Below, piece by piece: positions 2,187 to 44,971 of a stretch of 64,000 nt of DNA. Position 1 is the stretch's first letter; every line of letters starts with the position of its first letter. Below the pieces are notes generated by a model that saw only the letters and a program-made list of their open reading frames with translations, made no database searches and had not been told where the DNA came from. The stretch is taken from the NCBI GenBank assembly GCA_049975425.1, contig JBNGDI010000003.1:14162-78161 (forward strand), written 5' to 3'. Source of the DNA: Bacteroidales bacterium. GTDB taxonomy: Bacteria; Bacteroidota; Bacteroidia; Bacteroidales; VadinHA17. The position numbers and the translations under genes were made by a program.

Positions 2187-2281
2187 TCTGTTGAACCGAT
2201 CAGCCCATGTCTCAGGACTGTATCCGCTCAAAAATAATCATTATTGTCGAACCGGCGAAGCGCTCGGGTCGAATAACCCCG

Positions 2282-2773: not shown

Positions 2774-2883
2774 GGCCTTCCAGTAATTGTTACCAACCAT
2801 AAGACGGATGAGGAAGTAAAAGATTACAGCCTGAATGAAAAAAGATCTTTGAACTCAAGGACAGGCGGCAATCCATTCTTCCC

Positions 2884-3630
2884 TTATTTCCCCATAATCC
2901 CGAACCTGTGAAAAAGGGATATTCTCGCCTCGTGTATTACAGGATCGTTACCGCCTGTGAAAAACGGTGTCAGCATATAGGTAAAACTCACTCCTATGCC
3001 GCTGGGAGTGTGGGCTATCATGGCATTCACTCCCCATTTTGTTTTCTGCAGATTGTATTCCCTCCAGTCTTTGTTCCGTATCACTTCTTTCACCTTCTCC
3101 CCGTCTTCCAGGTATTTCATTTTGTATTTACCGCTCAGGTACTGGTCAACAAAAGCCCCGCCTGAAATCATCATGGGACCCACTCTGAAAGTCATATCCA
3201 GTGGAAAATAAAATGATCCGTAAACCAGCTTGCTTTTTCCGTACCCGAAAAAAGTATTGACATAATCTCGGTTGGGAACCGGATCTTCCATTACCAATAT
3301 ATTTCCGAGAACTCTGGTAAATACGAGATTTTCCCTGAAACGGTATTTGTTGATGGCCACGCCTGCCCCCAGGCTGATGTGGGCATGTTCAAAACCAACA
3401 GAAATCAGGTCAAAGGAATATCTGCCCGTAAAGGCATCGAACATAAATCCCGAACCAAACCCGTCAATGGTTGTGGCAAACCTTTCGGCATCCTCCCCCA
3501 GGAAGAAGTTGTAAGCCAGTCCGGCATCATTCCTCGAAAATTCCAGGAATTTCACATCGAAATCATTCTGTGCCCGGGTATGTGAAATACCCAGAGCAAC
3601 GATCATAAAACAGAAAGTAATTTTTTTCAT
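2884..3630 (-). CDS. Outer-membrane beta-barrel-like protein (family unassigned)
   Basis: ORF 2884..3723, with the start moved to MKKITFCFMIVALGISHTRAQ (signal peptide). Gly/aromatic-rich alternating strand pattern throughout (GFGSGFMFDAFTGRYSFDL, GAGVAINKYRF, KLVYGSFYFPLDMTF). Confidence 0.5.
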   Translation of the reverse strand: MKKITFCFMIVALGISHTRAQNDFDVKFLEFSRNDAGLAYNFFLGEDAERFATTIDGFGSGFMFDAFTGRYSFDLISVGFEHAHISLGAGVAINKYRFRENLVFTRVLGNILVMEDPVPNRDYVNTFFGYGKSKLVYGSFYFPLDMTFRVGPMMISGGAFVDQYLSGKYKMKYLEDGEKVKEVIRNKDWREYNLQKTKWGVNAMIAHTPSGIGVSFTYMLTPFFTGGNDPVIHEARISLFHRFGIMGK

Positions 3631-29073: not shown

Positions 29074-31533
29074 ATGAAGCTGTCGGATCTTAAGGTAGAA
29101 GAAGAAGGGATTATTGTCAAGGTGAAAGGACGGGGAACTTTTCGCAAAAGGATCATTGAGATGGGGTTTGTCAGGGGAAAGAAGGTGAAAGTAGTACGGA
29201 ACGCACCCCTGAATGATCCGGTGGAATACCGGATCATGGACTATGAAGTATCCCTGCGCAGAAGTGAAGCCTCCCTGATCGAGGTAATTACAGAAAAAGA
29301 AGCCCGTGAAGAACACCTCACTCCCTTTAACGGGGTGTTTACCGAAGAGCACCTCAGAAGTTCGGCACGCGAAAAAGGAAAAAACATACAGGTAGCCCTG
29401 GTGGGCAACCCAAACTCGGGGAAAACCACCCTGTTCAACTATGCCTCCAGCTCAAGGGAAAGGGTGGGAAACTACGGGGGAGTTACGGTAGATTCCAAAA
29501 CCGCTGTTTTTCGTCACAGGGGATATACTTTTCATATCACCGACCTGCCGGGAACCTATTCCCTTTCGGCCTATTCTCCCGAAGAACTGTTTGTGCGGAA
29601 GCATATTCTGCATGAAATGCCTGATATCGTGATCAACGTGGTGGATGCTTCAAACCTGGAAAGAAACCTGTATCTCACCACCCAGCTCATCGACATGGAT
29701 GTACGGACCATCATGGCCCTGAACATGTATGATGACATGGCCCGAAGAGGGGCCAGGCTGGATCACGAAGCCCTGGGGAAACTGCTGGGGATCCCCATTG
29801 TTCCTACTGTAGCTTCACGCGGAAGGGGGATACGGAATCTCTTCGATAAGATTATTGAAGTATATTCCGACGAAGACCCGGTGGTAAGGCACGTTCATAT
29901 CAATTATGGTCAGGAAGTGGAAGCATCCCTGGAAAAGATCCAGGATAAAATCTGGGAAAACAAGAACCTGACCGACCGGGTTTCCTCCCGGTTCTATGCC
30001 ATCAAGCTGCTTGAAAACGACCGGTCGGTATTCGTCACCCTTACTCCCTTTCCGAATTATCAGGAAATCAGAAAAACTGCCGTTGAAGAAATGGAACGGC
30101 TCAGGAAGGTTTTCAGGGAAGATACGGAAACCATCATTGCCGATGCCCGCTACGGATTCATTGCCGGAGCCCTGAGGGAAACCCTGCGCCAGCCTCTGCT
30201 GAGCCATAACAGGATCACCGAAGGAATAGACCGTATCCTCACCCACCGGATCCTTGGATTCCCGTTTTTTCTGTTGTTCATGTTCATCACCTTTTTCAGC
30301 ACTTTCAGGCTGGGGGAGTATCCTATGCAATGGATCGACAGCCTGGTCTCTTTCATTGGCAACCTCATTGACGGGAACATGGCTGCAGGTCCCCTGCACG
30401 ACCTGCTGATCGACGGAATCATCGGCGGGGTGGGAAGCGTGATCGTGTTCCTGCCCAATATCCTGATCCTTTTTTTCTTCATCTCCTTGATGGAAGACAC
30501 CGGCTACATGGCCCGGGCAGCTTTTATCATGGATAAGATCATGCACCGCATCGGTCTGCACGGCAAATCGTTCATCCCCCTCATCATGGGCTTTGGATGC
30601 AACGTGCCTGCAATTATGGCTACCCGAACCATTGAAGACCCAAAGAACCGCCTGCTGACTATTCTGATCAACCCGTTTATGTCATGCAGTGCGCGCCTGC
30701 CGGTGTATATCCTGCTGATCGGAGCCTTTTTCCCTCAGTTTCCCGGCCTGATGCTCTTTGCTGTATACCTTACCGGGATAATCATGGCTGCAGGTACAGC
30801 CGTGCTGTTCAACAAAACCCTCTTCCGGAGCCGGGAAGCCCCATTTGTCATGGAACTTCCACCCTACCGGGTCCCGACCATCCGCAGCCTGCTGAAACAT
30901 ATGTGGCACAAGGGAGAACAATACCTGAAAAAAATGGGAGGTGTGATCCTGGTGGCATCCATACTGATCTGGGCCCTGGGATATTATCCACGCCCCCCGG
31001 AACCAGCAGAAACAACCGGCAAAGGGACCACCCAAACGGCCTTGAACATGACACAGGAAACAAAAACCGGCGAAACGGAATATAATCCCGGAAGTACAGA
31101 AAAAAATGCGGAATCTTATATTGTCAGAATCGGGCACTTCATTGAACCCGCGCTGCGCCCTCTGGGATTCAACTGGAAAATGGGCGTCAGCCTGCTAACC
31201 GGCATTGCCGCCAAGGAGGTGGTGGTCAGTACACTGGGCGTGCTGCACCAGACTGAAACCCAGGAAGGATCCGATTATGAAACCCTCATCAGCAAATTGC
31301 AGGAAGAAAAATATGAATCCGGTCCCCAGAAAGGAGAAAAGGTGTACAATCCATTATCCGCCCTGTCGTTCCTTTTGTTCATCCTGATCTATTTCCCCTG
31401 TGTGGCCGTGGTGGCGGCAGTGAAAAAAGAAACCGGCAAATGGCAGTGGGCTTTGTTCATGATCGTATACACCACAAGCCTGGCCTGGCTGGTTTCGTTT
31501 GCTGTGTATCAAATTGGTAATTGGATCTTCTGA
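29074..31533 (+). CDS. feoB: Ferrous iron transporter, FeoA-FeoB fusion
   Basis: 819 aa. The N-terminal FeoA/SH3-like region reads LKVEEEGIIVKVKGRG..GFVRGKKVKVVRNAPLNDPVEY. The G domain reads IQVALVGNPNSGKTTLFN..DLPGTYSL, followed by a polytopic gate domain. Confidence 0.9.
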   Translation: MKLSDLKVEEEGIIVKVKGRGTFRKRIIEMGFVRGKKVKVVRNAPLNDPVEYRIMDYEVSLRRSEASLIEVITEKEAREEHLTPFNGVFTEEHLRSSAREKGKNIQVALVGNPNSGKTTLFNYASSSRERVGNYGGVTVDSKTAVFRHRGYTFHITDLPGTYSLSAYSPEELFVRKHILHEMPDIVINVVDASNLERNLYLTTQLIDMDVRTIMALNMYDDMARRGARLDHEALGKLLGIPIVPTVASRGRGIRNLFDKIIEVYSDEDPVVRHVHINYGQEVEASLEKIQDKIWENKNLTDRVSSRFYAIKLLENDRSVFVTLTPFPNYQEIRKTAVEEMERLRKVFREDTETIIADARYGFIAGALRETLRQPLLSHNRITEGIDRILTHRILGFPFFLLFMFITFFSTFRLGEYPMQWIDSLVSFIGNLIDGNMAAGPLHDLLIDGIIGGVGSVIVFLPNILILFFFISLMEDTGYMARAAFIMDKIMHRIGLHGKSFIPLIMGFGCNVPAIMATRTIEDPKNRLLTILINPFMSCSARLPVYILLIGAFFPQFPGLMLFAVYLTGIIMAAGTAVLFNKTLFRSREAPFVMELPPYRVPTIRSLLKHMWHKGEQYLKKMGGVILVASILIWALGYYPRPPEPAETTGKGTTQTALNMTQETKTGETEYNPGSTEKNAESYIVRIGHFIEPALRPLGFNWKMGVSLLTGIAAKEVVVSTLGVLHQTETQEGSDYETLISKLQEEKYESGPQKGEKVYNPLSALSFLLFILIYFPCVAVVAAVKKETGKWQWALFMIVYTTSLAWLVSFAVYQIGNWIF

Positions 31534-31548
31534 ACGGAGAAAGAAAAC

Positions 31549-31812
31549 ATGTGCATTTCAGAAATAATTTTTATTCATACCGTTCCTTTTCAGGAAGGAA
31601 TAACCCTGGTGCTTGTCGCCGCAGCCGCAATATACAGCCTGTATAAACTGATTATGCTGTTTGTGCCCGGAAAAACAACTGTTCAGGGACGGGAGCTGTG
31701 CGGAACCTGCTCGCACTGCCGGCATTTACTGCCTGATAAAAGAAAATACAAAAGACATTCTTTTTTCAGGAACATTCCTGAATGGCCGCCCCAACATAAT
31801 GACGGATTTTAA
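31549..31812 (+). CDS. FeoB-associated Cys-rich small membrane protein (candidate)
   Basis: It starts 16 nt after feoAB. One TM segment (ITLVLVAAAAIYSLYKLIMLFV) is followed by CGTCSHC, the architecture of the FeoB-associated Cys-rich family. The true start and length are uncertain. Confidence 0.5.
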   Translation: MCISEIIFIHTVPFQEGITLVLVAAAAIYSLYKLIMLFVPGKTTVQGRELCGTCSHCRHLLPDKRKYKRHSFFRNIPEWPPQHNDGF

Positions 31813-31820
31813 TTTTTTTA

Positions 31821-31828
31821 TATTTTTG
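31821..31828 (+). promoter_or_regulatory. TAnnTTTG promoter-like motif immediately upstream of the Cys-rich/TonB-receptor gene set
   Basis: TATTTTTG lies 12 nt upstream of the ATG at 31840, which would imply a very short leader. The evidence is weak. Confidence 0.25.
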
Positions 31829-31839
31829 TCATCTGAATC

Positions 31840-32304
31840 ATGAAAAAAGTCCGGCATATCCTGTCTCTGGTCATTGCACTGTTCCTGACAGCCGCTACCA
31901 CAGGAAGTTTTTTTTATGCCCACCACTGCCGGAACCTGCAGCAAACATCCATTTTATGGGAATACCCGGAAGAAAACTGCTGCAATCACCACAAATCATG
32001 CTGTACGGAAAAACCGGCCACCGGACCCACCGATGATCAAACGGTTTTCAGTCCCGTTCCATGCTGCTCTACCTACCCGGTATACCTGGTTCTGGATACC
32101 GATTATGATACGACCCGGTCAGACCAGACTGTACATCCCATCTCACAGGGAATGATCCTTCGGATAGCGTGTTTCCCGCAGGACAACCATACCGGCCACT
32201 CATTTCAAACCCTTTTCATTAGCAAATCTCCGCCCAGGCTGAGCGGGCGGAAGCTCGTTCTCTTCATGCATCAGCAAAAGATCCCTTCCCCTTCAGCAGC
32301 ATAA
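31840..32304 (+). CDS. Small exported/anchored Cys/His-rich protein (HYC_CC_PP-family-like)
   Basis: 154 aa with an N-terminal hydrophobic segment (ILSLVIALFLTAATTGSFF) and then AHHC, ENCCNHHKSCC, PVPCC and KSPP. Eight Cys and many His are present. The motif order resembles the Bacteroidota HYC_CC_PP family as I remember it. It lies directly upstream of a TonB-dependent receptor. Confidence 0.55.
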   Translation: MKKVRHILSLVIALFLTAATTGSFFYAHHCRNLQQTSILWEYPEENCCNHHKSCCTEKPATGPTDDQTVFSPVPCCSTYPVYLVLDTDYDTTRSDQTVHPISQGMILRIACFPQDNHTGHSFQTLFISKSPPRLSGRKLVLFMHQQKIPSPSAA

Positions 32305-32376
32305 GCATTCCTGCTTCGCCGGAACTCCGGTTTTGTTGTTTGTTTCAAGTATTCATTACTGAAGGAAAAAATCACA

Positions 32377-34593
32377 ATGAATTTCAGAATACTGATGTCC
32401 CTCCTTCTGTTAGGGGCCAACACACTCAGTAACGGACAATCCGTTACAGGATATATCTTTGAAAAAACGGAAAATGAACAGCCCGTTCCCCTGCCCGGGG
32501 TTAACGTTTACTGGATGAATACCACCCGGGGAACCGTAACCGATAAAAACGGATATTTTCAGATACTGAAGGAAGGCTCTCACGACCATATGCTGGTTTT
32601 CAGCTATGTGGGCCATATCAGCGACACGGTGCATGTTCACGAACCATTCGAACCCATCGAAATATACCTTCTCAATGAGCTTTCCCTCGATGAAGTCACC
32701 ATCCATGGAAAACAGAAAGGAAGCCATCTGGACAGAATGAATCCCATTCACACCCAGGTGATCAGCGGAGCTGGTCTGCAACAGGCAGCATGCTGCAACC
32801 TTTCCGAAAGCTTTGAAAACAGTGCCACCGTTGATGTAAACTTTACCGATGCTCTCACCGGGGCGAAACAAATCGAACTGCTGGGCCTGGCCGGTGTGTA
32901 TTCGCAGATGATGACCGAAAACATCCCGAATCTGAGAGGACTGAGCAGTACCTTCGGACTGGCCTATGTGCCCGGAAGCTGGATGGAATCCATCCAGGTG
33001 TCAAAAGGGACCTCTTCTGTGGTAAACGGCTTCGAATCGGTTACCGGGCAGATCAATATCGAGTATAAGAAACCTGAAGACAGCGAAAAACTCTTCCTGA
33101 ATTTCTACGCCAACCATTTCAGGAAAGCCGAAGCCAATGTGAACTCCTCTGTAAAGCTGTCGGAAAAATGGAGTACCATGGTCCTTGCCCACGGGGAATG
33201 GAAGGACCACTCCTCCGACATCAACGGTGACGGATTCATCGATATGCCCCTGATGAAGCAGTACAACCTGATGAACCGCTGGAAATACCAGGGAACCCGA
33301 GGGCTGGAAAGCCGGTTTGGTTTTTCCGTGCTCGGTGAAGAAAGAACCGGCGGTGAACTCCGTTACAACTCAGAACTGCCTTCCACACCGGCCAACGGAT
33401 ACGGAATCAGTCTGAATACCCTGCGGGTGGAAGGCTACAATAAAACCGGATTTGTATTTCAGAACAAACCGGCCACCAGCCTGGGCTTTATTACCCATTA
33501 CAGCCACCACCGCCAGTTATCCCTGTATGGATTCAACACATACGAAGGCAGGCAAAACAGCCTGTATATGAACATGATCTATCAGTCGTTTATAGGCGAT
33601 ACCCGGCATGAATACCGTACCGGCATCAGCCTGACGAACGACCGGTTCGACGAAAAAGTGAACCAATATCCGTATCAACGCACGGAGACCATTCCCGGGA
33701 TATTTTTTCAGTACACCTGGAAGCCACGGGAAGACTTTACCCTCATGACCGGTATCCGGGCCGACTGGCATAATCGATGGGGAGTGTTTTATACTCCCAG
33801 ATTACATCTCCGAACAGAAATTACTCCTTCCACCACCCTCAGGGTGTCGGCAGGCCGTGGGTTTCGCACAGCCAGTGTGTTTGCTGAGCATTCATTCCTG
33901 CTGGCCAGCTCCAGGGAAGTGGAGGTACTGGAAGAACCCGGACAGGAAAAAGCCTGGAACTACGGACTTACCCTCAGCCAGCATTTCTCTTTACTGGGTA
34001 CCGAATGGACCTTCAGTGCGGAATACCACCGAACCAGCTTCCAGAACCAGGTAGTGGTTGATGTTTACAGGGATCCGGCTGCCATCTCCATATATAATCT
34101 GCAGGGCCCCTCCTGGTCCAACAGCCTGCAGCTTAACCTCAATGCCACCCCGCTTACCCGTTTCGATGTGGTACTGGGATACCGGCTGAACGATGTAAAA
34201 ACCACAATCAATGAGGAACTGGTGGAGAAACCCCTGGTAAACAGGCACAAAGGACTGGTGAACCTGAGCTATGCCACCCGCCTGAGTAAATGGCAGTTTG
34301 ACTTCACCTGGCAGTACAACGGGGGAGGCAGACTGACACCCACCGGCGGGTTTCCACCCGAATACCGTCGCCCCGACCGGTTCAATCCCTATTCCGTTAT
34401 CAACACACAAATCACCCGCCGTTTCCGTTACTGGAACATTTACCTCGGAACGGAAAACCTGGGAAATTTCCGCCAGACAAATCCCATACTGGCATGGGAT
34501 GATCCATTCGGTCCTTATTTCGATGCCTCCATGGTATGGGGACCCATCGAAGGCAGAAAAATATATGCGGGTATCCGGATCAATATTGACTAA
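32377..34593 (+). CDS. TonB-dependent outer-membrane receptor with N-terminal CarboxypepD_reg-like domain
   Basis: 738 aa with signal peptide MNFRILMSLLLLGANTLSNGQ. The CarboxypepD_reg region reads VTGYIFEK..LPGVNVYW..GTVTDKNGYF. The plug reads LDEVTIHG..AACCNLSESFENSATVDV..ELLGLAGVYSQ, followed by a long beta-barrel ending ..KIYAGIRINID. Confidence 0.85.
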   Translation: MNFRILMSLLLLGANTLSNGQSVTGYIFEKTENEQPVPLPGVNVYWMNTTRGTVTDKNGYFQILKEGSHDHMLVFSYVGHISDTVHVHEPFEPIEIYLLNELSLDEVTIHGKQKGSHLDRMNPIHTQVISGAGLQQAACCNLSESFENSATVDVNFTDALTGAKQIELLGLAGVYSQMMTENIPNLRGLSSTFGLAYVPGSWMESIQVSKGTSSVVNGFESVTGQINIEYKKPEDSEKLFLNFYANHFRKAEANVNSSVKLSEKWSTMVLAHGEWKDHSSDINGDGFIDMPLMKQYNLMNRWKYQGTRGLESRFGFSVLGEERTGGELRYNSELPSTPANGYGISLNTLRVEGYNKTGFVFQNKPATSLGFITHYSHHRQLSLYGFNTYEGRQNSLYMNMIYQSFIGDTRHEYRTGISLTNDRFDEKVNQYPYQRTETIPGIFFQYTWKPREDFTLMTGIRADWHNRWGVFYTPRLHLRTEITPSTTLRVSAGRGFRTASVFAEHSFLLASSREVEVLEEPGQEKAWNYGLTLSQHFSLLGTEWTFSAEYHRTSFQNQVVVDVYRDPAAISIYNLQGPSWSNSLQLNLNATPLTRFDVVLGYRLNDVKTTINEELVEKPLVNRHKGLVNLSYATRLSKWQFDFTWQYNGGGRLTPTGGFPPEYRRPDRFNPYSVINTQITRRFRYWNIYLGTENLGNFRQTNPILAWDDPFGPYFDASMVWGPIEGRKIYAGIRINID

Positions 34594-34641
34594 CCATCCA
34601 GCGGAAAACGTTTCATAATGTCAACCAAAAAACCACTCAAC

Positions 34642-35025
34642 ATGAAAAAAGAATTCATTACAAGGTTCTTACTGGCAGCAACCCTTCTTTTGCTCTCTCT
34701 GCCCGGATATACACAGAAACCCCTGAAGGAAAAGCTTACCGTTACCTTTCACTCCAGTATGCATTGCGAAGATTGCGTGCAAACCCTTACCAAAAGCCTG
34801 GCTTTCGAAAAGGGAGTAACCGACCTGAAATTTGACCTGGAAAAAAACCTCATTACCATTGAGTACAAAAACTGGAAAACCGATCCCGGCAAGCTCCGTA
34901 AAGTGATCCTGGAAACGGGTTTCAAGGCAGAAGAAGTGAAGGAAAAGGAAAAGGAAAAGGAAAAGGAAAAGGAAAACAAAAAGGAAAAAGATCCGGGCAA
35001 CCAGGATGCTCCGGAAAAAACCTGA
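34642..35025 (+). CDS. Exported heavy-metal-associated (HMA) domain protein with C-terminal (KE)n tail
   Basis: ORF 34618..35025, with the start moved to MKKEFITRFLLAATLLLLSLPGYTQ (signal peptide). The HMA fold carries the metal motif SMHCEDC (MxCxxC). The tail reads EVKEKEKEKEKEKENKKEKD. Confidence 0.75.
   Translation: MKKEFITRFLLAATLLLLSLPGYTQKPLKEKLTVTFHSSMHCEDCVQTLTKSLAFEKGVTDLKFDLEKNLITIEYKNWKTDPGKLRKVILETGFKAEEVKEKEKEKEKEKENKKEKDPGNQDAPEKT
34941..34976. repeat. Perfect hexanucleotide tandem repeat (GGAAAA)x6 inside the HMA gene
   Basis: Read directly from the sequence: ggaaaa repeated six times at 34941-34976, in frame, encoding the KEKEKE... tail. Confidence 0.95.
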
Positions 35026-35072
35026 ATATTGAATATATTTGTTTATCCATTCAAACCACAAAATCTGAAGCC

Positions 35073-35666
35073 ATGAAAAAAATAGTTGCATTCGCTCTGC
35101 TCAGCCTGGTTATCGGCGCCGCCTGCCAGAACAGGGAAAAGAATCATGAATCCGCCAGTCAGCAGGTTACGGAAATAAGTATCCCCGATCTTCTGGCTCA
35201 GGCCGACCAGTATGTGGGCAATACGGTGAAGATCACCGGAATGGTCCAGCATGTATGCAAGGAAACAGGCAAAAGAATGTTCCTCATCGACCGGAAACCC
35301 GAAAACCGGATCCGCATAGATGTGAGCGGCGATATGGGGACTTTCCCTGTGGAACTGGAAGGAAGCACTGTAGAAGTAATTGGAGAAATGAAAGTATTAC
35401 GGATTGACGAAACCTACCTGCGGCAATGGGAAGAAGAGATACAATCGGGCGAGAAGCTGGCCGAGGATAAAAAAATCCACACCGGAGGCGATTCGGCCGG
35501 CTCGCATGACGAGAGCAGCCAGCTGGGAGAAGCCGCCGACCAGGGAACCCATACCGCAACAAAGGAGCAGATCGCCCGTTACCGGGAACAACTGGCTCAG
35601 AGCGACAGCGATCATCTGTCATTTTATTCGATTACCTGTCAGGAATACAGGGAAATTGAAGAATAA
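35073..35666 (+). CDS. Lipoprotein of unknown function
   Basis: 197 aa with the lipobox-like LLSLVIGAAC. The core VGNTVKITGMVQHVCKETGKRMFLIDRKPENRIRIDV..VEVIGEM suggests a small beta domain, followed by an acidic/Gln-rich tail. No family was assigned. Confidence 0.55.
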   Translation: MKKIVAFALLSLVIGAACQNREKNHESASQQVTEISIPDLLAQADQYVGNTVKITGMVQHVCKETGKRMFLIDRKPENRIRIDVSGDMGTFPVELEGSTVEVIGEMKVLRIDETYLRQWEEEIQSGEKLAEDKKIHTGGDSAGSHDESSQLGEAADQGTHTATKEQIARYREQLAQSDSDHLSFYSITCQEYREIEE

Positions 35667-35675
35667 ACCACCGGT

Positions 35676-36233
35676 ATGAAATTCAACTGGAGAAAATGGA
35701 TCCGGGTCATCCACCGTGATTTCGGTTATCTTTTTTTCGGGGCCACCATTGTCTATGGATTATCGGGCATTGCTCTGAATCACCTGGATGAATGGAACCC
35801 AAACTATATCATCGAGAACCGGGCTGTCCAGGTGAAATTCCCGGAAAATGTGTACGGGCTGTCGCGCGATGACGTACGGGAAATCATGGCACAGATCGGG
35901 GAAGAAAGGAATTTCAAGAATTTCTATTTCCCCGATGATCAGTCGATGAAAGTCTTTATACGGGGCGGATCGGTCCTGTTCAACCTGGAAACCGGCCAGG
36001 GTCTTCTGGAAAGCATCAGGAGAAGGCCCGTATTTCACGAAGTGAATTTTCTTCACTACAATCCGGTCAGGTTGTGGACCTGGTTTTCCGATCTGTTCGC
36101 AGGGGCCCTGATCGTTCTGGCCATGACCGGACTTTTCATGATCAAAGGGAAAAAAGGAATTACCGGCAGGGGGGCCTGGCTTACCGCCGTGGGAATACTT
36201 ATACCTCTTGCATTTTTACTGATCTATCTTTAG
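35676..36233 (+). CDS. PepSY-associated TM-helix protein
   Basis: 185 aa. WRKWIRVIHRDFGYLFFGATIVYGLSGIALNH is the PepSY_TM signature, and a second TM pair lies at the C-terminus (WFSDLFAGALIVLAMTGLFMI, AWLTAVGILIPLAFLLIYL). Confidence 0.7.
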   Translation: MKFNWRKWIRVIHRDFGYLFFGATIVYGLSGIALNHLDEWNPNYIIENRAVQVKFPENVYGLSRDDVREIMAQIGEERNFKNFYFPDDQSMKVFIRGGSVLFNLETGQGLLESIRRRPVFHEVNFLHYNPVRLWTWFSDLFAGALIVLAMTGLFMIKGKKGITGRGAWLTAVGILIPLAFLLIYL

Positions 36234-37377: not shown

Positions 37378-38133
37378 TTACATCATGGCCTCCTTCAGCC
37401 TTTCCATTCCCCCCTGGCTCATGCTGAGCTTCTCTCCTCCGTGCAACAGGGCCAGATAGCTCTCCCTGCCGTACTTTTCAATGCTCCGGATTTCTCTTAC
37501 AGCCACAATATACGACCGGTGTATGCGGATGAATTCCTTCCCGTCCAGGCGATCTTCCAGGTATTTCATGGTCATTTTTTTCATGTACCGCTCCTTCAGG
37601 GTATGTATCTTCACATAATCATCCACCGCTTCAAAATACCGGATATCGTCCAGTGAAAGTATATGGATGCGCGATCCTGCCTTCACCACCAGCCGTTCTA
37701 TATTCTTTACCTGTTCCCTGGCCGCATTCATCAAGCCCTGCACCCCATCGCCGGCATTCCGGCCGCCGGTACGCTGCACGGCTTTATCCACCGCTTCCTT
37801 CAGGCGTTCCTCCGAAAAAGGCTTCAGCAGGTAATCCACCGCGCTCAGTTCAAAAGCCCGGATAGCATACCGGTCGTAGGCTGTTACAAAAATCACGGCC
37901 GGCCATTCATCAAGCAGCTCCAGCATTTCCAGTCCGGTAAGCCTGGGCATCTGAATATCCAGGATCACCATATCGGGCCTGATTTCCTGAATGGCCTTTA
38001 ATCCGGTAAAACCGTCGTCATACTCCCCAATTATTTCCACAGAAGGATGATTGCGCAGGTAATACCTGATGATATCCCTGGCAGGCGCTTCATCGTCTAT
38101 GATCAGGGTTGTGAGTTTTCTTTCCTTTTTCAT
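37378..38133 (-). CDS. LytTR-family response regulator
   Basis: 251 aa. The receiver domain reads LIIDDEAPARD..PDMVILDIQMPRLTGLEM. The C-terminal LytTR DNA-binding domain reads IRYFEAVDDYVKIHT..FIRIHRSYIV. Confidence 0.9.
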   Translation of the reverse strand: MKKERKLTTLIIDDEAPARDIIRYYLRNHPSVEIIGEYDDGFTGLKAIQEIRPDMVILDIQMPRLTGLEMLELLDEWPAVIFVTAYDRYAIRAFELSAVDYLLKPFSEERLKEAVDKAVQRTGGRNAGDGVQGLMNAAREQVKNIERLVVKAGSRIHILSLDDIRYFEAVDDYVKIHTLKERYMKKMTMKYLEDRLDGKEFIRIHRSYIVAVREIRSIEKYGRESYLALLHGGEKLSMSQGGMERLKEAMM

Positions 38134-39191
38134 GAAGATTGGGGTATCAGCAATGTGACTGTAAATATCCGTTCATCTTTCTCAATGCCCATCAGCCCTT
38201 CCTGACCGTATTTCAGTTCCAGTCGCTGGGCGATATTATTCAGCCCGATACCCCGGCGTCCGGCTGCAGGCACATCAGGGTCATAATGGTTGCTGAGCGT
38301 AAGCCTGAGCCGGTTTTCATCACACCAGGCCGTTAATTTGATCTCCACCTGTTCCGTACTCTGGTACACCCCGTGCTTGACAGCATTTTCAAACAGGGGC
38401 TGCAGGATCAGGTTGGGCAATTTCATTTTTATACACCTTTCGGGAATATCCCTGTTGAACAGCAAACGTTCCCCAAACCTCACCTGTTCCATGGCAAGGT
38501 AGTTTTCAATGTGATGCAGTTCTTCCTCCAGGGTAGACTCATCTTCCAGTTTATGGTCGAGGGAATACCTGAAAAACTCCGACAGCCTGACCACCATATC
38601 CCTTGCTTTAGCAGGATCAGTCAGTGTAAGGGCGCTGATACTGTTCAGGCTGTTGAATAAGAAATGAGGATTTATCTGTGAACGCAGCATTTTCAGCTCC
38701 GATTCCTTGATCAGGGTCTCCAGCCTGGCTTCCTGCCTGTCTTTTTCCCGCAGGCGGTGCCATGTCATGGTAAGGTAATAAACCAGCAGAATAATGAGAT
38801 ATACCAGTGCCCCGCCAACCACCTTCCAGCCCACTGATTCATTCAAATACACATGATAACCCTGTATGCTGGGGAAAAAATTTCGCAGGAATAAATGCGT
38901 AAGTGTGAGCCAGAGAAGAAGGATCACTGCACCCGACATGCCATACCCTGCCAGAATAAAGAGCAGATTGTTTTTGCCTGTATCCATAAACCTGACAGGA
39001 TACCACAGGGCCAGACCCAGCAGGGCGAGAAAGAAAGTGGAGATCAGGGCCTCATTGACAGACACATACAGGGGAAAGTCCTCGCGCCACAACAGCAGCA
39101 TTACGTGGACCCCCGCCAGGAGGATCCACGTGGATGCATACAGAATAATGTTCTTTCTGCTAACCAGAAAAGGATGCCGGCTGTTGTCCAT
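38130..39191 (-). CDS. Membrane sensor histidine kinase, LytS/YehU type (His_kinase PF06580-like)
   Basis: 353 aa with about five N-terminal TM helices, then LRSQINPHFLFNSLNSISAL (phospho-acceptor region) and HATPase motifs (LQPLFENAVKHG, GIGLNNI). Its stop overlaps the regulator start by 4 nt. Confidence 0.85.
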   Translation of the reverse strand: MDNSRHPFLVSRKNIILYASTWILLAGVHVMLLLWREDFPLYVSVNEALISTFFLALLGLALWYPVRFMDTGKNNLLFILAGYGMSGAVILLLWLTLTHLFLRNFFPSIQGYHVYLNESVGWKVVGGALVYLIILLVYYLTMTWHRLREKDRQEARLETLIKESELKMLRSQINPHFLFNSLNSISALTLTDPAKARDMVVRLSEFFRYSLDHKLEDESTLEEELHHIENYLAMEQVRFGERLLFNRDIPERCIKMKLPNLILQPLFENAVKHGVYQSTEQVEIKLTAWCDENRLRLTLSNHYDPDVPAAGRRGIGLNNIAQRLELKYGQEGLMGIEKDERIFTVTLLIPQSS

Positions 39192-39195
39192 GGGC

Positions 39196-39903
39196 TCAGA
39201 AATCTACCAGGTCTCCTCCCCCAAAGATAGCCACTCCTTTTATAATAAGCTGCTTGGAAGGATCTCTAACGATCCTGGGATCGGCAGCACGCTTATCGGA
39301 AAATCCACCGAAAATAGAGCTCACCTCCACCTTCACATCCCAGTCGCCGGGCACAAAAAGCTTGGTCCCGCCAAACATGGCGAAATAATCAATATAGACC
39401 TTTCCCTTGGCCATTTTTGCCTGCCTCAGATCGATCTCCGATCCTCCGAAAATGGCTGTGATCTTACCCCCCTGAAAATTATTGGAGGTGAACATTTTCT
39501 TTCCTCCGCCGAAAATAGCCACATCATCCAGGAAATCTTCGTCATTGACCTCAGCACGATGGATCATCTTCCCGTTATGACCTGCAAAACGAAAGATCAT
39601 CACCAATCCCAGCCCAATGAGCAGCACCGGCCAGAAGAAAAGGTGAAACTCAAAATGCACACCCGGAAATATCCGGGGAACCAGGAAAAACCCTCCAATG
39701 ATCAGCAATATCCAACCGGTAAGCGATCCTTCCCGGCTGGCAAGAAAAATCACCCCCAGTGCTACCAGCAGCATAGGCCACGAAAACAGAATATGCCTGA
39801 GAGGGTAGTGGATAAGATTCATATTGCCGGCAATCAGAAACAAACCGGCGAAAATAAAGATCAGTCCGACAACGGCACTGCGGTGAAAACGACTGCGTTC
39901 CAT
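39196..39903 (-). CDS. LiaF-like / cell-wall-active-antibiotic-response (DUF2154) membrane protein
   Basis: ORF 39196..39948, with the start moved to MERSRFHRSAVVGLIFIFAGLFLIAGN. Four TM helices are followed by a beta-rich C-terminal domain with repeated (I/M)FGG motifs (AIFGGGKK, AIFGGSEIDL, AMFGGTKLFVP, SIFGGFSDK, AIFGGGDL). It ends 4 nt before the kinase start. Confidence 0.7.
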   Translation of the reverse strand: MERSRFHRSAVVGLIFIFAGLFLIAGNMNLIHYPLRHILFSWPMLLVALGVIFLASREGSLTGWILLIIGGFFLVPRIFPGVHFEFHLFFWPVLLIGLGLVMIFRFAGHNGKMIHRAEVNDEDFLDDVAIFGGGKKMFTSNNFQGGKITAIFGGSEIDLRQAKMAKGKVYIDYFAMFGGTKLFVPGDWDVKVEVSSIFGGFSDKRAADPRIVRDPSKQLIIKGVAIFGGGDLVDF

Positions 39904-40023
39904 TTTTTTTGTTTTTTTGTGAATAATAACGCGTGACAAACAACCCAAAAATAGGAACGCCCTTCAGCAGTTCAAACAGTTTTTCGGTAAACGCGGGGAA
40001 AAAATCGGTAAACAGGGAAAACC

Positions 40024-41175
40024 TCAATCCCACACTCCGGGGATAGGCTGCCCGCAGGAAGCACATTTGCCGTTTTTCAGCAACGGCATGGTTACCTGGT
40101 ATCCTTTTCTCACCACCAGGGTTTTTCCGCAGTTCGGACAGAGGGTGTCCTGGGCCGGATGCCCCGGCACATTCCCCACATAAACAAAATGCATTCCTTC
40201 ATTTAGCGCTGTTTTCCTGGCCTGATCCAGCGTGCTCACCGGAGTGGGAGCCAGCCGGTTCAGCTTGTACATAGGTTGAAACCGGCTGAAATGGAGGGGG
40301 GTATCGGAAAAACCGTTCTTCACCAGCCAGCGGCACATTTCCCCGATCATTTTCATATCATCGGTCCAGGTAGGAACTATCAGGTTGGTGATCTCCAGCC
40401 ATACCCCTTCTTCCTTCAGGGTAAGCAGGGTATCCAGTACCGGTTGTAATTTTCCGGCGTTCAGCATGGCATAGATATCATCACTGAAACTCTTCAGGTC
40501 AATGTTGGCCGCATCGATCACACGGCACCAGTCTTTCAGCGGCCGGGGACTGATAAATCCTGCCGAAACGATCACATTGCTCAGGCCTGCCTGCCGGGCC
40601 AGTGTGGAAGTATCCAGTGTGTATTCATAAAACGCCACCGGATCGGAATAGGTATAGGCAATGGAAGGGCAGTTTTCCTGAATGGCCAGTTCCACTACTT
40701 TCGGTGGCATCAGGTCATAATTCCGCGTCTCCCTGGGACTCCGCTGGGATATCTCCCAGTTCTGGCAGTTCAGGCAGGCCAGGTTGCACCCTGCGGTTGC
40801 AATGGATAACACCCGGGTGCCTGGATGAAAATGATGGAGAGGCTTCTTCTCCATGGGGTCTATGTTCACCGAACAGGGATTGCCGTAGGCAATGGTGTAC
40901 AATTTGCCGTCCACTACTTCTTTTGTACGGCAATCGCCCGCCTCACCCTCTTTGATATCACATTCGTTGGGGCAGGTACGGCATTTGATCCCCCGGGGAG
41001 TGGAAATATAGTGCATGGCTTCCCGGCTCCATTTCCAGGGTTTTCCAGCCCGGATATTAATATTCTGCCCGGAATTCTCCCCGAGCAGAAAGGGGCAACA
41101 ATACATTCCTCCCACACCCAGCAGGCTTTTTCTGATAAACTCGCGTTTCGACAGTTTTTCTTCTTCCGGACTCAT
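40024..41175 (-). CDS. amrS: AmmeMemoRadiSam-system radical SAM enzyme with N-terminal Tat-like leader
   Basis: 383 aa. The leader reads LSKREFIRKSLLGVGGMYCCPFLLG. The auxiliary Cys region reads IKCRTCPNECDIKEGEAGDCR. The radical SAM motif reads IATAGCNLACLNCQNWEISQ (CX3CX2C). The C-terminal Cys pair reads CPNCGKT..CASCG. It lies on the same strand as the Memo-AMMECR1 gene. Confidence 0.8.
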   Translation of the reverse strand: MSPEEEKLSKREFIRKSLLGVGGMYCCPFLLGENSGQNINIRAGKPWKWSREAMHYISTPRGIKCRTCPNECDIKEGEAGDCRTKEVVDGKLYTIAYGNPCSVNIDPMEKKPLHHFHPGTRVLSIATAGCNLACLNCQNWEISQRSPRETRNYDLMPPKVVELAIQENCPSIAYTYSDPVAFYEYTLDTSTLARQAGLSNVIVSAGFISPRPLKDWCRVIDAANIDLKSFSDDIYAMLNAGKLQPVLDTLLTLKEEGVWLEITNLIVPTWTDDMKMIGEMCRWLVKNGFSDTPLHFSRFQPMYKLNRLAPTPVSTLDQARKTALNEGMHFVYVGNVPGHPAQDTLCPNCGKTLVVRKGYQVTMPLLKNGKCASCGQPIPGVWD

Positions 41176-41251: not shown

Positions 41252-43405
41252 TCACACAGGAATACCCGGAGCAGAATACCGGTACCATGCCATACCGGCC
41301 AGGGCCACACCCGCTGTCAGAAAACAGGTCACAATAATTCCCGCCAGAGGGATGAGCACGGCGCTCACCAGCATAGCGCCCAGTGCCGAACCCATCAGGT
41401 CGGCTGAGTACAAACGGCCCGACGACCGGAAAATATCCGTCTGCAACAGGCGGGTACCCCGGGCAAAAAGGGTCCCAACCAGAAAAGCGGTCAGCAGGGT
41501 GACCGATCCGATAAAAACCGGGACCAGGAGGGCAGTGAGAGAGGAATCCTTTAGCAGGAAAATCAAAACCGGCATCATCACCAGGATAGCAGCCAGCCCA
41601 ACCAGCGGTCGGGTAAACGGTTTTTCTTTGCCGCTCTTCCTCTGCTCTGCCGTGCGCGATCCAAGATACAGACCCAGCATAAACACCGTAATCAGCATGC
41701 CGGTAGCCAGGTACAGATATCCGAACAATACCTGGAATGCCAGCAGAAGGATCACTTCCAGGGCTGCCGAGGCAAATCCTCCGGCAAACAGGGCCACCTG
41801 CACGGGGTTCATCCTGATCAGGGTGAGCAGGATAAACAGCATGAAAATGAGGGGCGCCAGGCTGTGCAACCAGTCGAAATGGCTCAGCCACTGCTTCCAG
41901 TGACTGAAAGTAGCCACCGGGTACAATCCGGTATTCGTCCGGATATCCGGAGTCAGGTCTTCGATAATCCGTTCGGCACGCCGGTGGATCAGATCATTGC
42001 TGATATACCAGGGGTTCAGGTAGTCGTTCTTCAGCCCCTTTTCCGTGATCAGTCCGGTAATGTTCCAGTCAAATTCCCTGGCCGAGGCAATAAAATAATC
42101 CTCTTCTCCGGGGACAATAACTACATGGGGAAACACTTCCTTCAGGGTGAAATACAGAATGGAATGGTTCTGTCTGGCCGACTCGCCCAGGTAATTGCCC
42201 GATGCCGGCAGGGAAATGGAAAAAACACCTCCGGGGCTGAGCAATTCCTGGCAACGCAGGAAAAACTCACGGGTAAAGTACCGGTTGGTTTGCAGATTAT
42301 CGGGTGGAGGGGCATTCACCAGAATGGCATCATACCGTTTGTCCTCCGCCCTGTTCACAAAGATCACAGGATCCTGGAAATGCATTGTCAGCCAGTGGGC
42401 CGAAATTTCCGGAAATTCCGATTGCAGCATTTCCACCAGCTCGGGATTGATTTCCACGGCATCCACGGCTGCGGGATCGTATTTGGAAATTTCCTGCAGC
42501 ATACCGTTCCAGCTTCCGAATACCAGCAGCAGGGTATCGGGCCGGGGGTGCTGGCTCAGGGGATAATGCACTTTTTCTTCCTGCAATGCAGGATTACCCG
42601 TTGAGTAAAGCAACTCATTGTTCTCATACAACTGCCACTGCTCGTGCATGCGGGTAAGAGTCAGGCTGCCATAGGGAGATTCCTGCTGCATTACCACATG
42701 CTGCCCCGGAAAAAGCCACCGGTTTTCCAGTTTCCCGGGATCGGTAAAAAACAAAATGAATGCTGTAAGGGCCATGCTGACTACCGACCATCCAAGGATC
42801 TTTCGCCTTCCCGTTTTCCACGTCACCATGGCCAGTACACCCATATTGAGCAACAGGATCAGGAACAGGGCAGCCCAGTGCGGGAAAAGAAACACCAGGA
42901 TAAAGGAAAACAGGGCTCCCCCGGCCAGTGAGCCCGATGCTTCCAGATAATAAATCCTGTTGGTATGATTTGATCCGGCTCGTTCGGATAGTGATCCGGA
43001 AAAAATGGGAAAGGACATACCCGAAACAAAACAGAAGGGAAGCAACACGGCCCATGAAAAGACCAGTACGGGAAGCAGACCTGTCATAACCCCCGGCGTG
43101 AAAAAAGTGTACCGCAGCCACACCAGCAGAAAATGCGTCAGGGGAGGCAGCCAGGCCAGGACCAGAAAGAGCGGGATCAGGTGGCGGTGCAACCGCCTGA
43201 AACGATAGCCTGTCCAGGCACCGAGAGCCGTGATAAACATCCACGAGGCCAGCAGTAGTCCGATGACCAGCTCATTCCCCTGGAACAGTTTCAGGAAATC
43301 GCGCAGCAGGATGAGCTGGGCCGACATGGAAGTAAATCCCATAGCCACAACCAGCCAGTATTCGGGCAATCCGGAAGCTGCTTTCCTTTTCACTCCCATA
43401 AACAA
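41252..43405 (-). CDS. Polytopic membrane protein with central spermidine-synthase-like (class I MTase fold) domain (fused MFS/spermidine-synthase type)
   Basis: 717 aa. The N-terminal ~220 aa and C-terminal ~190 aa are hydrophobic multi-helix bundles. The central soluble region SPYGSLTLTRM..LYENNELLYS..LLLVFGSWNGMLQEISKY..VDAVEINPELVEM..RYDAILVNAPPPDN..NRYFTREFF..LSPGGVFSISL is colinear with SpeE-type aminopropyltransferases. Confidence 0.75.
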   Translation of the reverse strand: MFMGVKRKAASGLPEYWLVVAMGFTSMSAQLILLRDFLKLFQGNELVIGLLLASWMFITALGAWTGYRFRRLHRHLIPLFLVLAWLPPLTHFLLVWLRYTFFTPGVMTGLLPVLVFSWAVLLPFCFVSGMSFPIFSGSLSERAGSNHTNRIYYLEASGSLAGGALFSFILVFLFPHWAALFLILLLNMGVLAMVTWKTGRRKILGWSVVSMALTAFILFFTDPGKLENRWLFPGQHVVMQQESPYGSLTLTRMHEQWQLYENNELLYSTGNPALQEEKVHYPLSQHPRPDTLLLVFGSWNGMLQEISKYDPAAVDAVEINPELVEMLQSEFPEISAHWLTMHFQDPVIFVNRAEDKRYDAILVNAPPPDNLQTNRYFTREFFLRCQELLSPGGVFSISLPASGNYLGESARQNHSILYFTLKEVFPHVVIVPGEEDYFIASAREFDWNITGLITEKGLKNDYLNPWYISNDLIHRRAERIIEDLTPDIRTNTGLYPVATFSHWKQWLSHFDWLHSLAPLIFMLFILLTLIRMNPVQVALFAGGFASAALEVILLLAFQVLFGYLYLATGMLITVFMLGLYLGSRTAEQRKSGKEKPFTRPLVGLAAILVMMPVLIFLLKDSSLTALLVPVFIGSVTLLTAFLVGTLFARGTRLLQTDIFRSSGRLYSADLMGSALGAMLVSAVLIPLAGIIVTCFLTAGVALAGMAWYRYSAPGIPV

Positions 43406-43465: not shown

Positions 43466-44971
43466 TTACCGGCCGGAAAGCTCGTGTTCGCTGAATACGG
43501 TAGCCTCAAATACAAAGAGTTCGGCATCTTTCCATCCGTAGTATCCTATGCCGGCCTTGTCTCGAGCACAACGGCCCAGGAATTCTTCCACGGTCCAACC
43601 GTATTTTTCACCTACCTGAGGCAGGAACGTGCCGGTGGCAAACCCTTTCCGCATATAAATCCCGTGTTTGCCCATAACAATTTCATCTTTCGACTGGATG
43701 GGCTGCAGCGAACTGAGCACGGAAATTTCGATCTCCAGTTCATCCAGTTCTTCCCTGGTAACGGGTTTGAACCGTGAATCCTGAGTGGCGGCCGCAACGG
43801 CCATTTTCTGCACGGTAAGGTAAATAGGATCGGTGTCGGCAAAACGGCCGATGCAACCCCTGAGGGCGCCATCTTTTGTTAAGGTGACGAAAGCCCCTCC
43901 TTCCTGCTTCAGGTTGGGAGAAAGCTTGTCGGGATTGAATGCCACCAGGGTCTCGTCGTCAAGGAATCTTTCCAGCGTTCGCCTGGCAATTTCCAGAAGG
44001 TGTTTTTTATCAAGCTCGGTTAGATTCATAAAAGTATTTCCGGTATTATGTTCTTTCTCAATTAGTTCTATGGCCCAGTAACCCACGGCACGGCTTTTAT
44101 CGCCGTTAGGTACCTGGCCTGAACTGGCATACCTGACCAGGGAATATTCCAGGCCGGCATCACCCTGTGTGAGGTTCAGCAGGCAGTACACGGCGGGCCA
44201 CCCGCACATGGCTGTTACCAGCCCTTTGATTCCCGATGCTTCATTCTTTTTTACAACCTGTAAAAATTGCTCCGGATCATTGGATGCCACGGCCTCTGCG
44301 GTGCTCCTGTCAACCTTTTCCGCATCTCCCGAAGAAGGGTAATGCGAGAAATCGGTACTTATCACAAACAGGTTCCCCGGGGTAAAATAAGGCTCCAGGC
44401 ACCGGGCTATGGCGCGGAGACTACTCAGGTCACGGGTGCCGATCAGTACGGGTACAATCTGAAAATCGTGGTTAAGCCGGTGCTGCAGAAAAGGAAGCTC
44501 CACTTCCAGGGAATGTTCCTGCTCATGAGGTGAGGCCTGATCGTGCATTTCGCGGCAATTCCTCACCAGATCTGCGGCAAGGGATGCATTCACCGGTACT
44601 TTCCCCAGGGGGGTAATAAAATGCCCGGAAGTATAAACGGCCGCTCCATGGTACATGGCCGTATGGCTGACACCGATCAGAAACACATTGCGGTATTCCT
44701 TTTCAGGATCCAGCCGGCTGAAGGCTGCCGCAGCCACCGGTCCGGAATAAACATACCCTGCATGCGGAACGATCAGGGCCCTGACCGGGTGTTCAGATAC
44801 CGGCTTGTCGGCAATCCGGAAATATTCCTCCAGGGAAGCACGCAACAAGGCTTTCTGTGCCGGATAAAAGCTGCCGGCCACGGCAGGTTGACGATCTTTC
44901 TGTGCCGAAACCGGAAGTCCTGTACATAAAAGGACCCATGCCACAGGAATAATCCATGCAGTATGTTTCAT
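43466..44971 (-). CDS. Memo-like (AmmeMemoRadiSam protein B) fused to AMMECR1-like (protein A), with Sec-type signal peptide
   Basis: 501 aa with signal peptide MKHTAWIIPVAWVLLCTGLPVSAQ. The Memo half reads AVAGSFYP..ALIVPHAGYVYSG..VISTDFSHY. The AMMECR1 half reads LLEIARRTLERFL..GGAFVTLTKDGALRGCIGRF..ISVLSSLQPI..HGIYMRKG..GTFLPQV. Confidence 0.85.
   Translation of the reverse strand: MKHTAWIIPVAWVLLCTGLPVSAQKDRQPAVAGSFYPAQKALLRASLEEYFRIADKPVSEHPVRALIVPHAGYVYSGPVAAAAFSRLDPEKEYRNVFLIGVSHTAMYHGAAVYTSGHFITPLGKVPVNASLAADLVRNCREMHDQASPHEQEHSLEVELPFLQHRLNHDFQIVPVLIGTRDLSSLRAIARCLEPYFTPGNLFVISTDFSHYPSSGDAEKVDRSTAEAVASNDPEQFLQVVKKNEASGIKGLVTAMCGWPAVYCLLNLTQGDAGLEYSLVRYASSGQVPNGDKSRAVGYWAIELIEKEHNTGNTFMNLTELDKKHLLEIARRTLERFLDDETLVAFNPDKLSPNLKQEGGAFVTLTKDGALRGCIGRFADTDPIYLTVQKMAVAAATQDSRFKPVTREELDELEIEISVLSSLQPIQSKDEIVMGKHGIYMRKGFATGTFLPQVGEKYGWTVEEFLGRCARDKAGIGYYGWKDAELFVFEATVFSEHELSGR

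Follow-up and report, generated by a model that had tools for sequence, protein, structure and literature searches.

AmmeMemoRadiSam systems combine a radical S-adenosylmethionine (SAM) enzyme, AmrS, with the Memo-family protein AmrB and the AMMECR1-family protein AmrA, and this kind of system is known from comparative genomics alone. Conservation of AMMECR1 and MEMO1 extends from archaea to humans, and both are linked to disease. Since radical SAM enzymes depend on SAM and a low-potential reductant, they are regarded as cytoplasmic. The sole published functional prediction for the AMMECR1/Memo/AmrS family is RNA base modification (PMC2034487). An AmmeMemoRadiSam operon is present in a stretch of 64,000 nucleotides (the window) from a Bacteroidales bacterium of the VadinHA17 lineage (assembly GCA_049975425.1, contig JBNGDI010000003.1, positions 14,162 to 78,161 of the forward strand). 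An earlier note, made from the letters of the window alone, had drawn attention to the N-terminus of its AmrS, which resembles a signal for twin-arginine translocation (Tat). The analysis described here indicates that residues 1–46 probably form a Tat-type signal with Lys-Arg (KR) in place of Arg-Arg (RR), which would put AmrS on the periplasmic face together with its partners.

The operon agrees with canonical AmmeMemoRadiSam systems in that AmrS (TIGR04337), AmrB (TIGR04336) and AmrA (TIGR04335) all exceed the curated cut-offs, the CxxxCxxC motif is intact along with the Cys motifs on either side of it, and the genes are adjacent; fusions of AmrB to AmrA, as found here, are common. It differs from the canonical, cytoplasmic system in the Tat-type leader of AmrS and in a signal for the general secretory (Sec) pathway on AmrB-AmrA. 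A fourth component, a SpeE-like protein with 14 transmembrane helices, is encoded between them, whereas the leaderless systems in our sample usually have neither this protein nor a signal on Memo. The closest solved structure by sequence is pyruvate formate-lyase activating enzyme (PDB 3c8f, 3cb8), with which AmrS shares the radical SAM core (residues 118–275, E = 1.2e-5). That enzyme, however, a small activase of the cytoplasm, has no leader, no N- and C-terminal Cys motifs and no Memo or AMMECR1 partners.

With respect to the leader, the closest described counterparts are natural KR Tat signals and Tat-exported Fe-S proteins. A natural KR signal is found in Salmonella TtrB, and R-to-K substitutions at the first position are tolerated (PMC1182353). 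The AmrS leader shares with these the tripartite build, the motif S-[KR]-R-x-F-[LIV]-[KR], a weakly hydrophobic, Gly-rich h-region and a cofactor-containing passenger. It differs in that the passenger is a radical SAM enzyme, KR is the rule of a clade (117/120) and the h-regions are rich in Cys. In the open-access papers searched, no exported radical SAM enzyme, radical SAM enzyme with a Tat leader or exported AmmeMemoRadiSam system was found. The paper on the HXS system has a Tat signal only in engineered constructs, in which a Sec or Tat peptide was placed before the effector HxsA, and not on the enzyme.

The AmrS leader and its conservation

The amrS gene (40024..41175, minus strand, as are all features of the operon given below) encodes 383 amino acids including the leader. 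It was assigned from TIGR04337 of NCBIfam (363 bits, cut-off 220; residues 63–383 matched) and from a Pfam Radical_SAM match at residues 126–274. The N-terminal sequence is MSPEEEKLSKREFIRKSLLGVGGMYCCPFLLGENSGQNINIRAGKPWKWSREA, and residues 1–35 occupy positions 41071-41175. By direct reading of the sequence, the first eight residues (MSPEEEKL, 41152..41175) form an n-region. They are followed at residues 9–16 (41128..41151) by the motif S-K-R-E-F-I-R-K, recognised through its conservation in homologues as a KR variant of S-R-R-x-F-L-K; the strict twin-arginine pair is absent, its first Arg being replaced by Lys. The h-region, delimited from Kyte-Doolittle values and the AlphaFold2 model, covers residues 17–32 (SLLGVGGMYCCPFLLG, 41080..41127) and consists of 16 uncharged residues, Gly-rich and with two Cys. 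Substitutions and the predicted local distance difference test (pLDDT) values define a polar c-region and variable linker at residues 33–46 (ENSGQNINIRAGKP, 41038..41079), in which R42 and K45 are basic and I-R-A|G is predicted as a possible signal peptidase site. The leader is thus tripartite, with four Lys or Arg in residues 1–16.

The view of the earlier note that this segment is an added leader and not part of the catalytic core is borne out by the TIGR04337 match, which begins at residue 63, and by the AlphaFold2 model of AmrS (mean pLDDT 84). In this model a lone helix spans residues 10–31, residues 30–42 are disordered (pLDDT <50) and the confident core begins at about residue 50. The figure of about 50 residues ahead of the first conserved Cys has to be corrected: 64 residues precede C65, and the domain starts at about residues 47–51 (WKWSREA). 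In the mature part, the N-terminal motif C65-x2-C68-P-x2-C72 ... C82 (40930..40983) was examined in alignment A1, which holds KR and RR types from several phyla; C68 is almost invariant there and C65, C72 and C82 fully so, and the motif is a probable auxiliary metal site. The radical SAM cluster motif C130-x3-C134-x2-C137 (CNLACLNC, 40765..40788) is invariant in alignments A1 and A3, and the C-terminal motif C346-x2-C349 ... C371-x2-C374 (40054..40140) is invariant in A1. Besides the CxxxCxxC cluster motif, the passenger therefore has eight more conserved Cys. Extracytoplasmic Fe-S proteins have to obtain their cofactor in the cytoplasm, and no periplasmic machinery for Fe-S assembly is known (PMC7317946). 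The [4Fe-4S] motif and the eight further Cys agree with the earlier suggestion that Tat export would suit a pre-folded Fe-S protein.

An in-frame TAA lies four codons 5' of the amrS ATG, so the open reading frame (ORF) cannot be longer. Compared with a 93%-identical relative, leader codons 1–31 have four synonymous and one non-synonymous differences, linker codons 32–46 have none and nine, and the mature part has 44 and 16, respectively. Such a distribution is what a constrained signal with a free linker behind it would show, and it indicates that the leader is translated and under purifying selection.

Conservation was followed in the 120 closest AmrS homologues, all from Bacteroidota-like metagenome-assembled genomes (MAGs) and 59–100% identical. 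The motif [SDT]-K-R-x-F-[LIVM]-[KR] is present at the same place in 117 of them and RK in one. The remaining two are P0003, which starts inside the h-region and looks like a truncated gene call, and P0004, which starts at M54 and is without a leader. Such conservation is far beyond chance, and together with the purifying selection it confirms that the Tat-like KR leader of AmrS is real and is kept in Bacteroidota. Residues R11 and F13 are invariant in alignment A1. A deeper search covered 1.84 billion cluster representatives, and the best 150 AmrS matches were classified. Classic RR leaders such as MSTTRRRFLAAAAG, SRRDFIKKLL and NRRQFLTCSLG stand in at least 26 of these, with the spacing to the CxxCPxxC motif unchanged; 57 are leaderless and 46 have longer architectures.

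A genome survey of 80 species-level AmrS loci gave a similar division. KR leaders were found in 37 (mostly Bacteroidota plus Ignavibacteriota; one, L068, is a chance match to the motif), RR leaders in 28 (Desulfobacterota, Omnitrophota, Aminicenantes, WOR-3, Stahlbacteria and also four Bacteroidales), RK in one and no leader in nine. Among carriers of the KR form are Mangrovibacterium marinum DSM 28823 (locus L009) and Tenuifilum thalassicum. The RR proteins score 356–379 bits on TIGR04337 (cut-off 220) and are therefore true members of the family. The RR protein of locus L016 has KR nearest neighbours at 70–71% identity (e.g. L015 at 71%), and that of L059 has the KR neighbours L060 and L056 at 75–77% (L060 at 77%). 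RR and KR forms are thus interleaved and interchangeable between close relatives. At the positions of the Tat consensus, F occurs at +2 in 141 of 148 leaders and K or R at +4 in 131 of 148. As a background, other ORFs of the loci gave three RR leaders and no KR leader, too few cases for a comparison.

The character of the h-region was compared with that of Sec signals, as Tat signals are less hydrophobic than Sec signals, yet the properties overlap (PMC7317946). The best 10-residue Kyte-Doolittle mean of the AmrS h-region in the window is 1.62. Across the family the mean is 1.84 for KR and 1.89 for RR leaders (p = 0.83), whereas Sec signals of the partner proteins average 2.75, well above both (p = 3e-32). 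KR and RR h-regions are Gly- and Ala-rich, with Gly at 17.9% in KR leaders, which thus show the weaker hydrophobicity and the Gly-rich, Leu-poor composition that set Tat apart from Sec.

The h-regions are also unusually rich in Cys. In the leaders of P0001-P0120, P0241-P0390 and loci L003-L082, at least one Cys is present in 87% of 146 KR and 59% of 54 RR leaders, and Cys makes up 6.6% (KR) and 4.8% (RR) of h-region residues at positions that are not those of a lipobox. A lipoprotein reading of these Cys was considered and rejected, since the preceding residues are unlike a lipobox and the hydrophobic stretch continues past the Cys.

Partners of AmrS and fused relatives

The amrS gene is the last of three genes on the same strand, separated by gaps of 60 and 76 bp. 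AmrA and AmrB are encoded alongside it, two genes upstream, as an amrB-amrA fusion of 501 amino acids (Memo + AMMECR1; 43466..44971) with matches to TIGR04336 (240 bits, residues 27–301) and TIGR04335 (166 bits, residues 324–493). Residues 1–23 of AmrB-AmrA (MKHTAWIIPVAWVLLCTGLPVSA|QK, 44903..44971) form a Sec-type signal peptide with a hydrophobicity of 2.68. A Sec or lipoprotein signal precedes the conserved sequence DRQPAVAG in nearly all of the 120 closest AmrB-AmrA homologues. The gene order of the operon is conserved in loci L001 and L002 and across phyla. A search for RNA elements such as riboswitches around the operon gave nothing credible, the sole match being to a viral family (E = 0.5), and a scan for sigma-70 promoters at the operon remained at chance level.

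Between amrB-amrA and amrS lies the gene of the membrane partner (41252..43405), a protein of 717 amino acids for which Pfam and AlphaFold2 indicate seven transmembrane helices, a spermidine-synthase-like domain and seven further helices. The Pfam Spermine_synth match covers residues 275–397. In the AlphaFold2 model (pLDDT 90.3, predicted template modelling score (pTM) 0.90), a domain of 290 residues stands between the two sets of seven helices. This domain (residues 222–511, 41873..42742), delimited by Foldseek and motif alignment, has the SpeE fold, as it matches aminopropyltransferases with E values of 3.5e-11 to 1e-8 and TM-scores (target) of 0.66–0.72; Foldseek gave SpeE domains only and nothing for the 14-helix part. 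When aligned to Synechococcus SpeE (6qmm), GGGDGG is replaced by FGSWNG and VD..SDP by VN..PPP (VNAPPP), so that both catalytic Asp residues are replaced; the family consensus at this site is LPxP. The Asp that specifies decarboxylated SAM is replaced as well, while the ribose-binding Glu (VEID, here VEIN) and the next Asp are kept. We infer that binding of an adenosyl compound has been retained, whereas the domain does not act as a spermidine synthase. The PRK03612 aminopropyltransferase and the NF037959 fused major facilitator/spermidine synthase resemble the partner in having N-terminal helices followed by a SpeE fold. The partner differs from them in scores far below the curated cut-offs (101.5 against 472 for PRK03612; 21.4 against 40 for NF037959), in the second seven-helix half, in the replaced catalytic Asp and in the predicted outward position of the domain. 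The membrane side that holds the N-terminus has about 25 Lys and Arg, the domain side about four, and the same bias is seen on average over 47 homologues. From the positive-inside rule, the helix count and this charge bias, the SpeE-like domain is predicted to face the periplasm.

Some further features of the SpeE-like proteins were recorded. In the window protein, conserved Q30, R35, G43-N44-E45 and W55 are placed where helices 1 and 2 end on the outer side, which is also the side of the domain, and may form a binding or transport site. Some of the proteins have a C-terminal Fer4_5 module (P0407, P0419). Many Bacteroidales versions (807–855 amino acids; P0394, P0398, P0415 and those of L006, L009, L013, L017 and L019) have an N-terminal extension of about 110–130 amino acids with two to three helices, a conserved H-R-K-x-W-N and a weak DUF4405 match (E = 4e-4). 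This extension may be a heme-binding electron-transfer element; the window version is without it.

In the 80 loci, the leader of AmrS co-varies with the signals of its partners. Wherever a locus had both a leader on AmrS and a complete Memo gene (37 loci), Memo carried a Sec or lipoprotein signal (35 scored by script; L048 and L075 read by eye). Four leaderless loci (L044, L045, L051, L073) have neither a signal on Memo-AMMECR1 nor a SpeE-like gene. When the neighbouring ORFs were clustered, only the SpeE-like membrane protein (53 of the 80 loci) and Memo-AMMECR1 (45 loci) recurred across phyla, and no NapH, FMN_bind or ApbE gene did so near AmrS. As the Memo signals and the SpeE-like gene go with the leader, the leader appears to mark a distinct exported subtype with four domains.

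In Thermodesulfobacteriota loci without Memo and the SpeE-like gene, a second radical-SAM-like ORF adjoins AmrS (L059, 2415-3470, minus strand; L060, 5270-6322, minus strand). It encodes about 350 amino acids with an RR leader (MEITRREFIKRSLIMGG...) and the motif C-x-L-C-P-R-x-C, and matches TIGR04337 only partially (30 bits).

Fused architectures give independent evidence, again at the level of sequence, for an extracytoplasmic AmrS. In P0261 and P0266 a single N-terminal helix is followed by FMN_bind and then AmrS, with no helix between. In P0255 and P0257, FMN_bind and a NapH-like Fer4_5 membrane module are followed by a last helix that leads into AmrS, and P0249, P0256 and P0260 join DsbD_2, with or without FMN_bind and Fer4_5, to AmrS. 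Triple fusions with Memo and AMMECR1 also occur in the family. At L058, a NapH/NosR-like ORF (428-3000) ends in an RR-preceded helix and then ...HEARYWRETP, an AmrS N-terminus, and overlaps an apparently leaderless AmrS ORF; the fusion in L058 would therefore be either real or frameshifted. Modules of the FMN_bind and NapH-like kinds serve electron transfer outside the cytosol (PMC8238504), and dual Sec/Tat insertion has been proven by experiment for the arrangement in which a NapH module is joined, through a fifth helix with RR before it, to a cofactor domain (PMC5449189). The AmrS relatives fused behind FMN_bind and NapH-like (Fer4_5) modules via a final helix are built in the same way as the dual Sec/Tat NapH-NapG polyferredoxins and the flavinylated NapH/NosR modules (PMC5449189, PMC8238504). 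They differ in that a radical SAM domain takes the place of the NapG ferredoxin or respiratory reductase, and the window AmrS differs in being a separate protein with its own N-terminal leader.

Proposed export of the system and alternative explanations

The earlier note had taken the DmsA-like gene in the window as a sign that Tat is present. The ORF concerned (3737-6133, plus strand) has the Molybdop_Fe4S4, Molybdopterin and Molydop_binding domains of a molybdenum bis-pyranopterin guanine dinucleotide (Mo-bisPGD) oxidoreductase and a classic RR leader, LNRRCFIRLSALSGSSLLAAGGFLSC, in line with that claim. The organism thus probably has a Tat pathway in use, and KR would be specific to the AmrS family and no general feature of its leaders. 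A possible lipobox Cys follows this RR leader, and the molybdoenzyme may be a Tat-exported lipoprotein. In locus L035 (contig JADHYO010000016.1, from a MAG labelled Aenigmatarchaeota), tatA (PF02416, E = 1.7e-15) and tatC (PF00902, E = 7e-58) lie at 11250-12151 beside an RR-leader AmrS (7864-9033) and a SpeE-like partner. Just upstream of this AmrS is an ORF of 95 amino acids with two helices and a weak cytochrome b561-like match (E = 2e-4).

From the leader and its co-variation with the partners, translocation of AmrS itself is inferred, and the enzyme system probably works outside the cytoplasm. The earlier note had offered either a membrane-targeting or anchoring device or unusual extracytoplasmic radical chemistry. 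This choice is narrowed toward an extracytoplasmic system, which is favoured because both partner proteins are directed to the outer face of the membrane; the leader could be either cleaved or kept as an anchor. In the proposed sequence of events, AmrS would bind its [4Fe-4S] cluster, and probably further metals, and fold in the cytoplasm. The Tat translocase would then recognise the KR leader and move the enzyme to the periplasmic face of the inner membrane. There AmrS would meet the Sec-exported AmrB-AmrA and the dedicated 14-helix membrane protein, whose outward SpeE-like domain would be catalytically dead and probably still bind adenosyl compounds. A role of the membrane partner in providing AmrS with SAM, or in clearing away the products of AmrS, is speculative. 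Equally speculative, by analogy with the fusions of other lineages, is that electrons arrive through NapH/NosR, FMN-binding or DsbD modules. A complete radical SAM system outside the cytoplasm, acting on a periplasmic or envelope substrate, with the 14-helix partner exporting SAM or removing 5'-deoxyadenosine and methionine, with presentation by way of its outward, catalytically dead SpeE-like domain, and with electrons entering by such modules, is put forward tentatively, as a possibility that we do not hold to be the likelier outcome.

Several observations weigh against export of AmrS by Tat to an active existence outside the cytoplasm. We know of no SAM or low-potential reductant outside the cytoplasm. 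The window operon has no NapH, FMN_bind or DsbD gene and no obvious electron carrier, and neither tatA nor tatC is present in the 64-kb window; the motif search for tatA gave nothing there and picked up one tatA in L035. The AmrS leader is without a clear A-x-A cleavage site. When N-termini of 60 residues were searched with the Tat-signal hidden Markov models (HMMs) PF10518 and TIGR01409, the window AmrS was unmatched, and homologue leaders reached 14–16 bits against a cut-off of 22.7. This test appears insensitive, because the RR control leader of the window and an RR mutant of the AmrS leader were likewise unmatched. In E. coli, replacement of the first Arg by Lys lowers Tat transport (PMC7317946), and given this handicap the near-invariance of KR in Bacteroidota is odd. 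Some AmrS relatives have strongly hydrophobic N-termini of the Sec or signal recognition particle (SRP) type (L063, 3786-4976; L068, 9785-10978; P0250; P0262), and P0250 carries a Sec-type signal followed by Memo, AMMECR1 and AmrS in one chain. The Sec-type N-termini of L063, L068 and P0250 do not fit the logic that an Fe-S protein needs Tat.

The leader could act without translocation, as a vestigial or re-purposed Tat-like motif of the kind found in the cytoplasm-facing nitrate reductase NarG; it would then bind a chaperone or tether AmrS to the cytoplasmic face, and the chemistry would be cytoplasmic. This would place the enzyme where SAM and low-potential reductants are established to be. 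It would also be in keeping with the absence of a Tat-signal HMM match, with an h-region of just 16 residues and with KR as a weakened motif (PMC7317946). However, the whole tripartite signal, and not the motif alone, is conserved in several phyla, and its basic n-region predicts an orientation with the N-terminus in and the C-terminus out. AmrB-AmrA is always signalled when AmrS has a leader, so that the partners would come to lie on opposite sides of the membrane, and in the FMN_bind fusions no helix separates AmrS from this extracytosolic domain, which puts both on one side. We therefore regard a leader without translocation as unlikely.

The KR leader could instead be a Sec (or SRP/YidC) signal or anchor, in which case AmrS would cross the membrane unfolded and either obtain its clusters outside or be inactive there. 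Lys-Arg n-regions are compatible with Sec, the properties of Tat and Sec signals overlap (PMC7317946), and relatives with Sec-type N-termini or, in the triple fusion, a Sec signal (L063, L068, P0250) do exist. Such a route would nonetheless call for Fe-S assembly in the periplasm, for which no machinery is known (PMC7317946). KR leaders are as weakly hydrophobic and as Gly- and Ala-rich as RR leaders, and the Sec signals in these operons are very different from them; the Tat-consensus F at +2 and K or R at +4 are kept, and RR and KR interchange among close relatives. Export of AmrS by Sec is thus quite improbable.

That the leader is a gene-calling artefact, with translation from the in-frame Met at residue 24 or 54, is scarcely credible: although P0003 and P0004 are called short, P0003 looks truncated, the changes in codons 1–31 are mainly synonymous (four to one), and residues 9–23 are conserved as protein in more than 100 homologues and across phyla.

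Neighbouring genes and significance

Directly downstream of amrS on the same strand (37378-39948, minus strand) are genes for a LiaF-like membrane protein (39196-39948), a histidine kinase (38130-39191) and a LytTR response regulator (37378-38133). Their Pfam labels were taken from the homologous genes of L001 and L002, where the arrangement is the same, and the set could be an envelope-stress sensing module. An iron/metal cluster upstream (29074-36233) comprises FeoAB (29074-31533), a TonB-dependent receptor (32377-34593) and a PepSY_TM-like protein (35676-36233), labelled from size and position relative to the annotated genes of L001 and L002; the version in those loci also holds an HMA-domain protein. 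In the ORF at 34669-35091, a run of FLFLFL codons is a simple DNA repeat.

The view that radical SAM enzymes belong to the cytoplasm only is challenged by a widespread subtype, found in several phyla, that has all of its components directed to the membrane's outer face, and the dedicated membrane protein of this subtype is the place to look for delivery of SAM or electrons. If a complete radical SAM system does work outside the cytoplasm, it would be the first case of such chemistry there. RNA base modification does not fit an exported system, and RNA would be ruled out as the universal substrate of the AMMECR1/Memo/AmrS family. At least for the exported subtype, this speaks for a small molecule, a lipid or an envelope component as the substrate. 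The clade-wide natural Lys-Arg motif would be useful for the study of Tat signal recognition. If export is real, it would raise the matter of radical SAM chemistry beyond the cytoplasm and constrain the function of AMMECR1 and Memo, for which the exported subtype would offer a tractable bacterial system.

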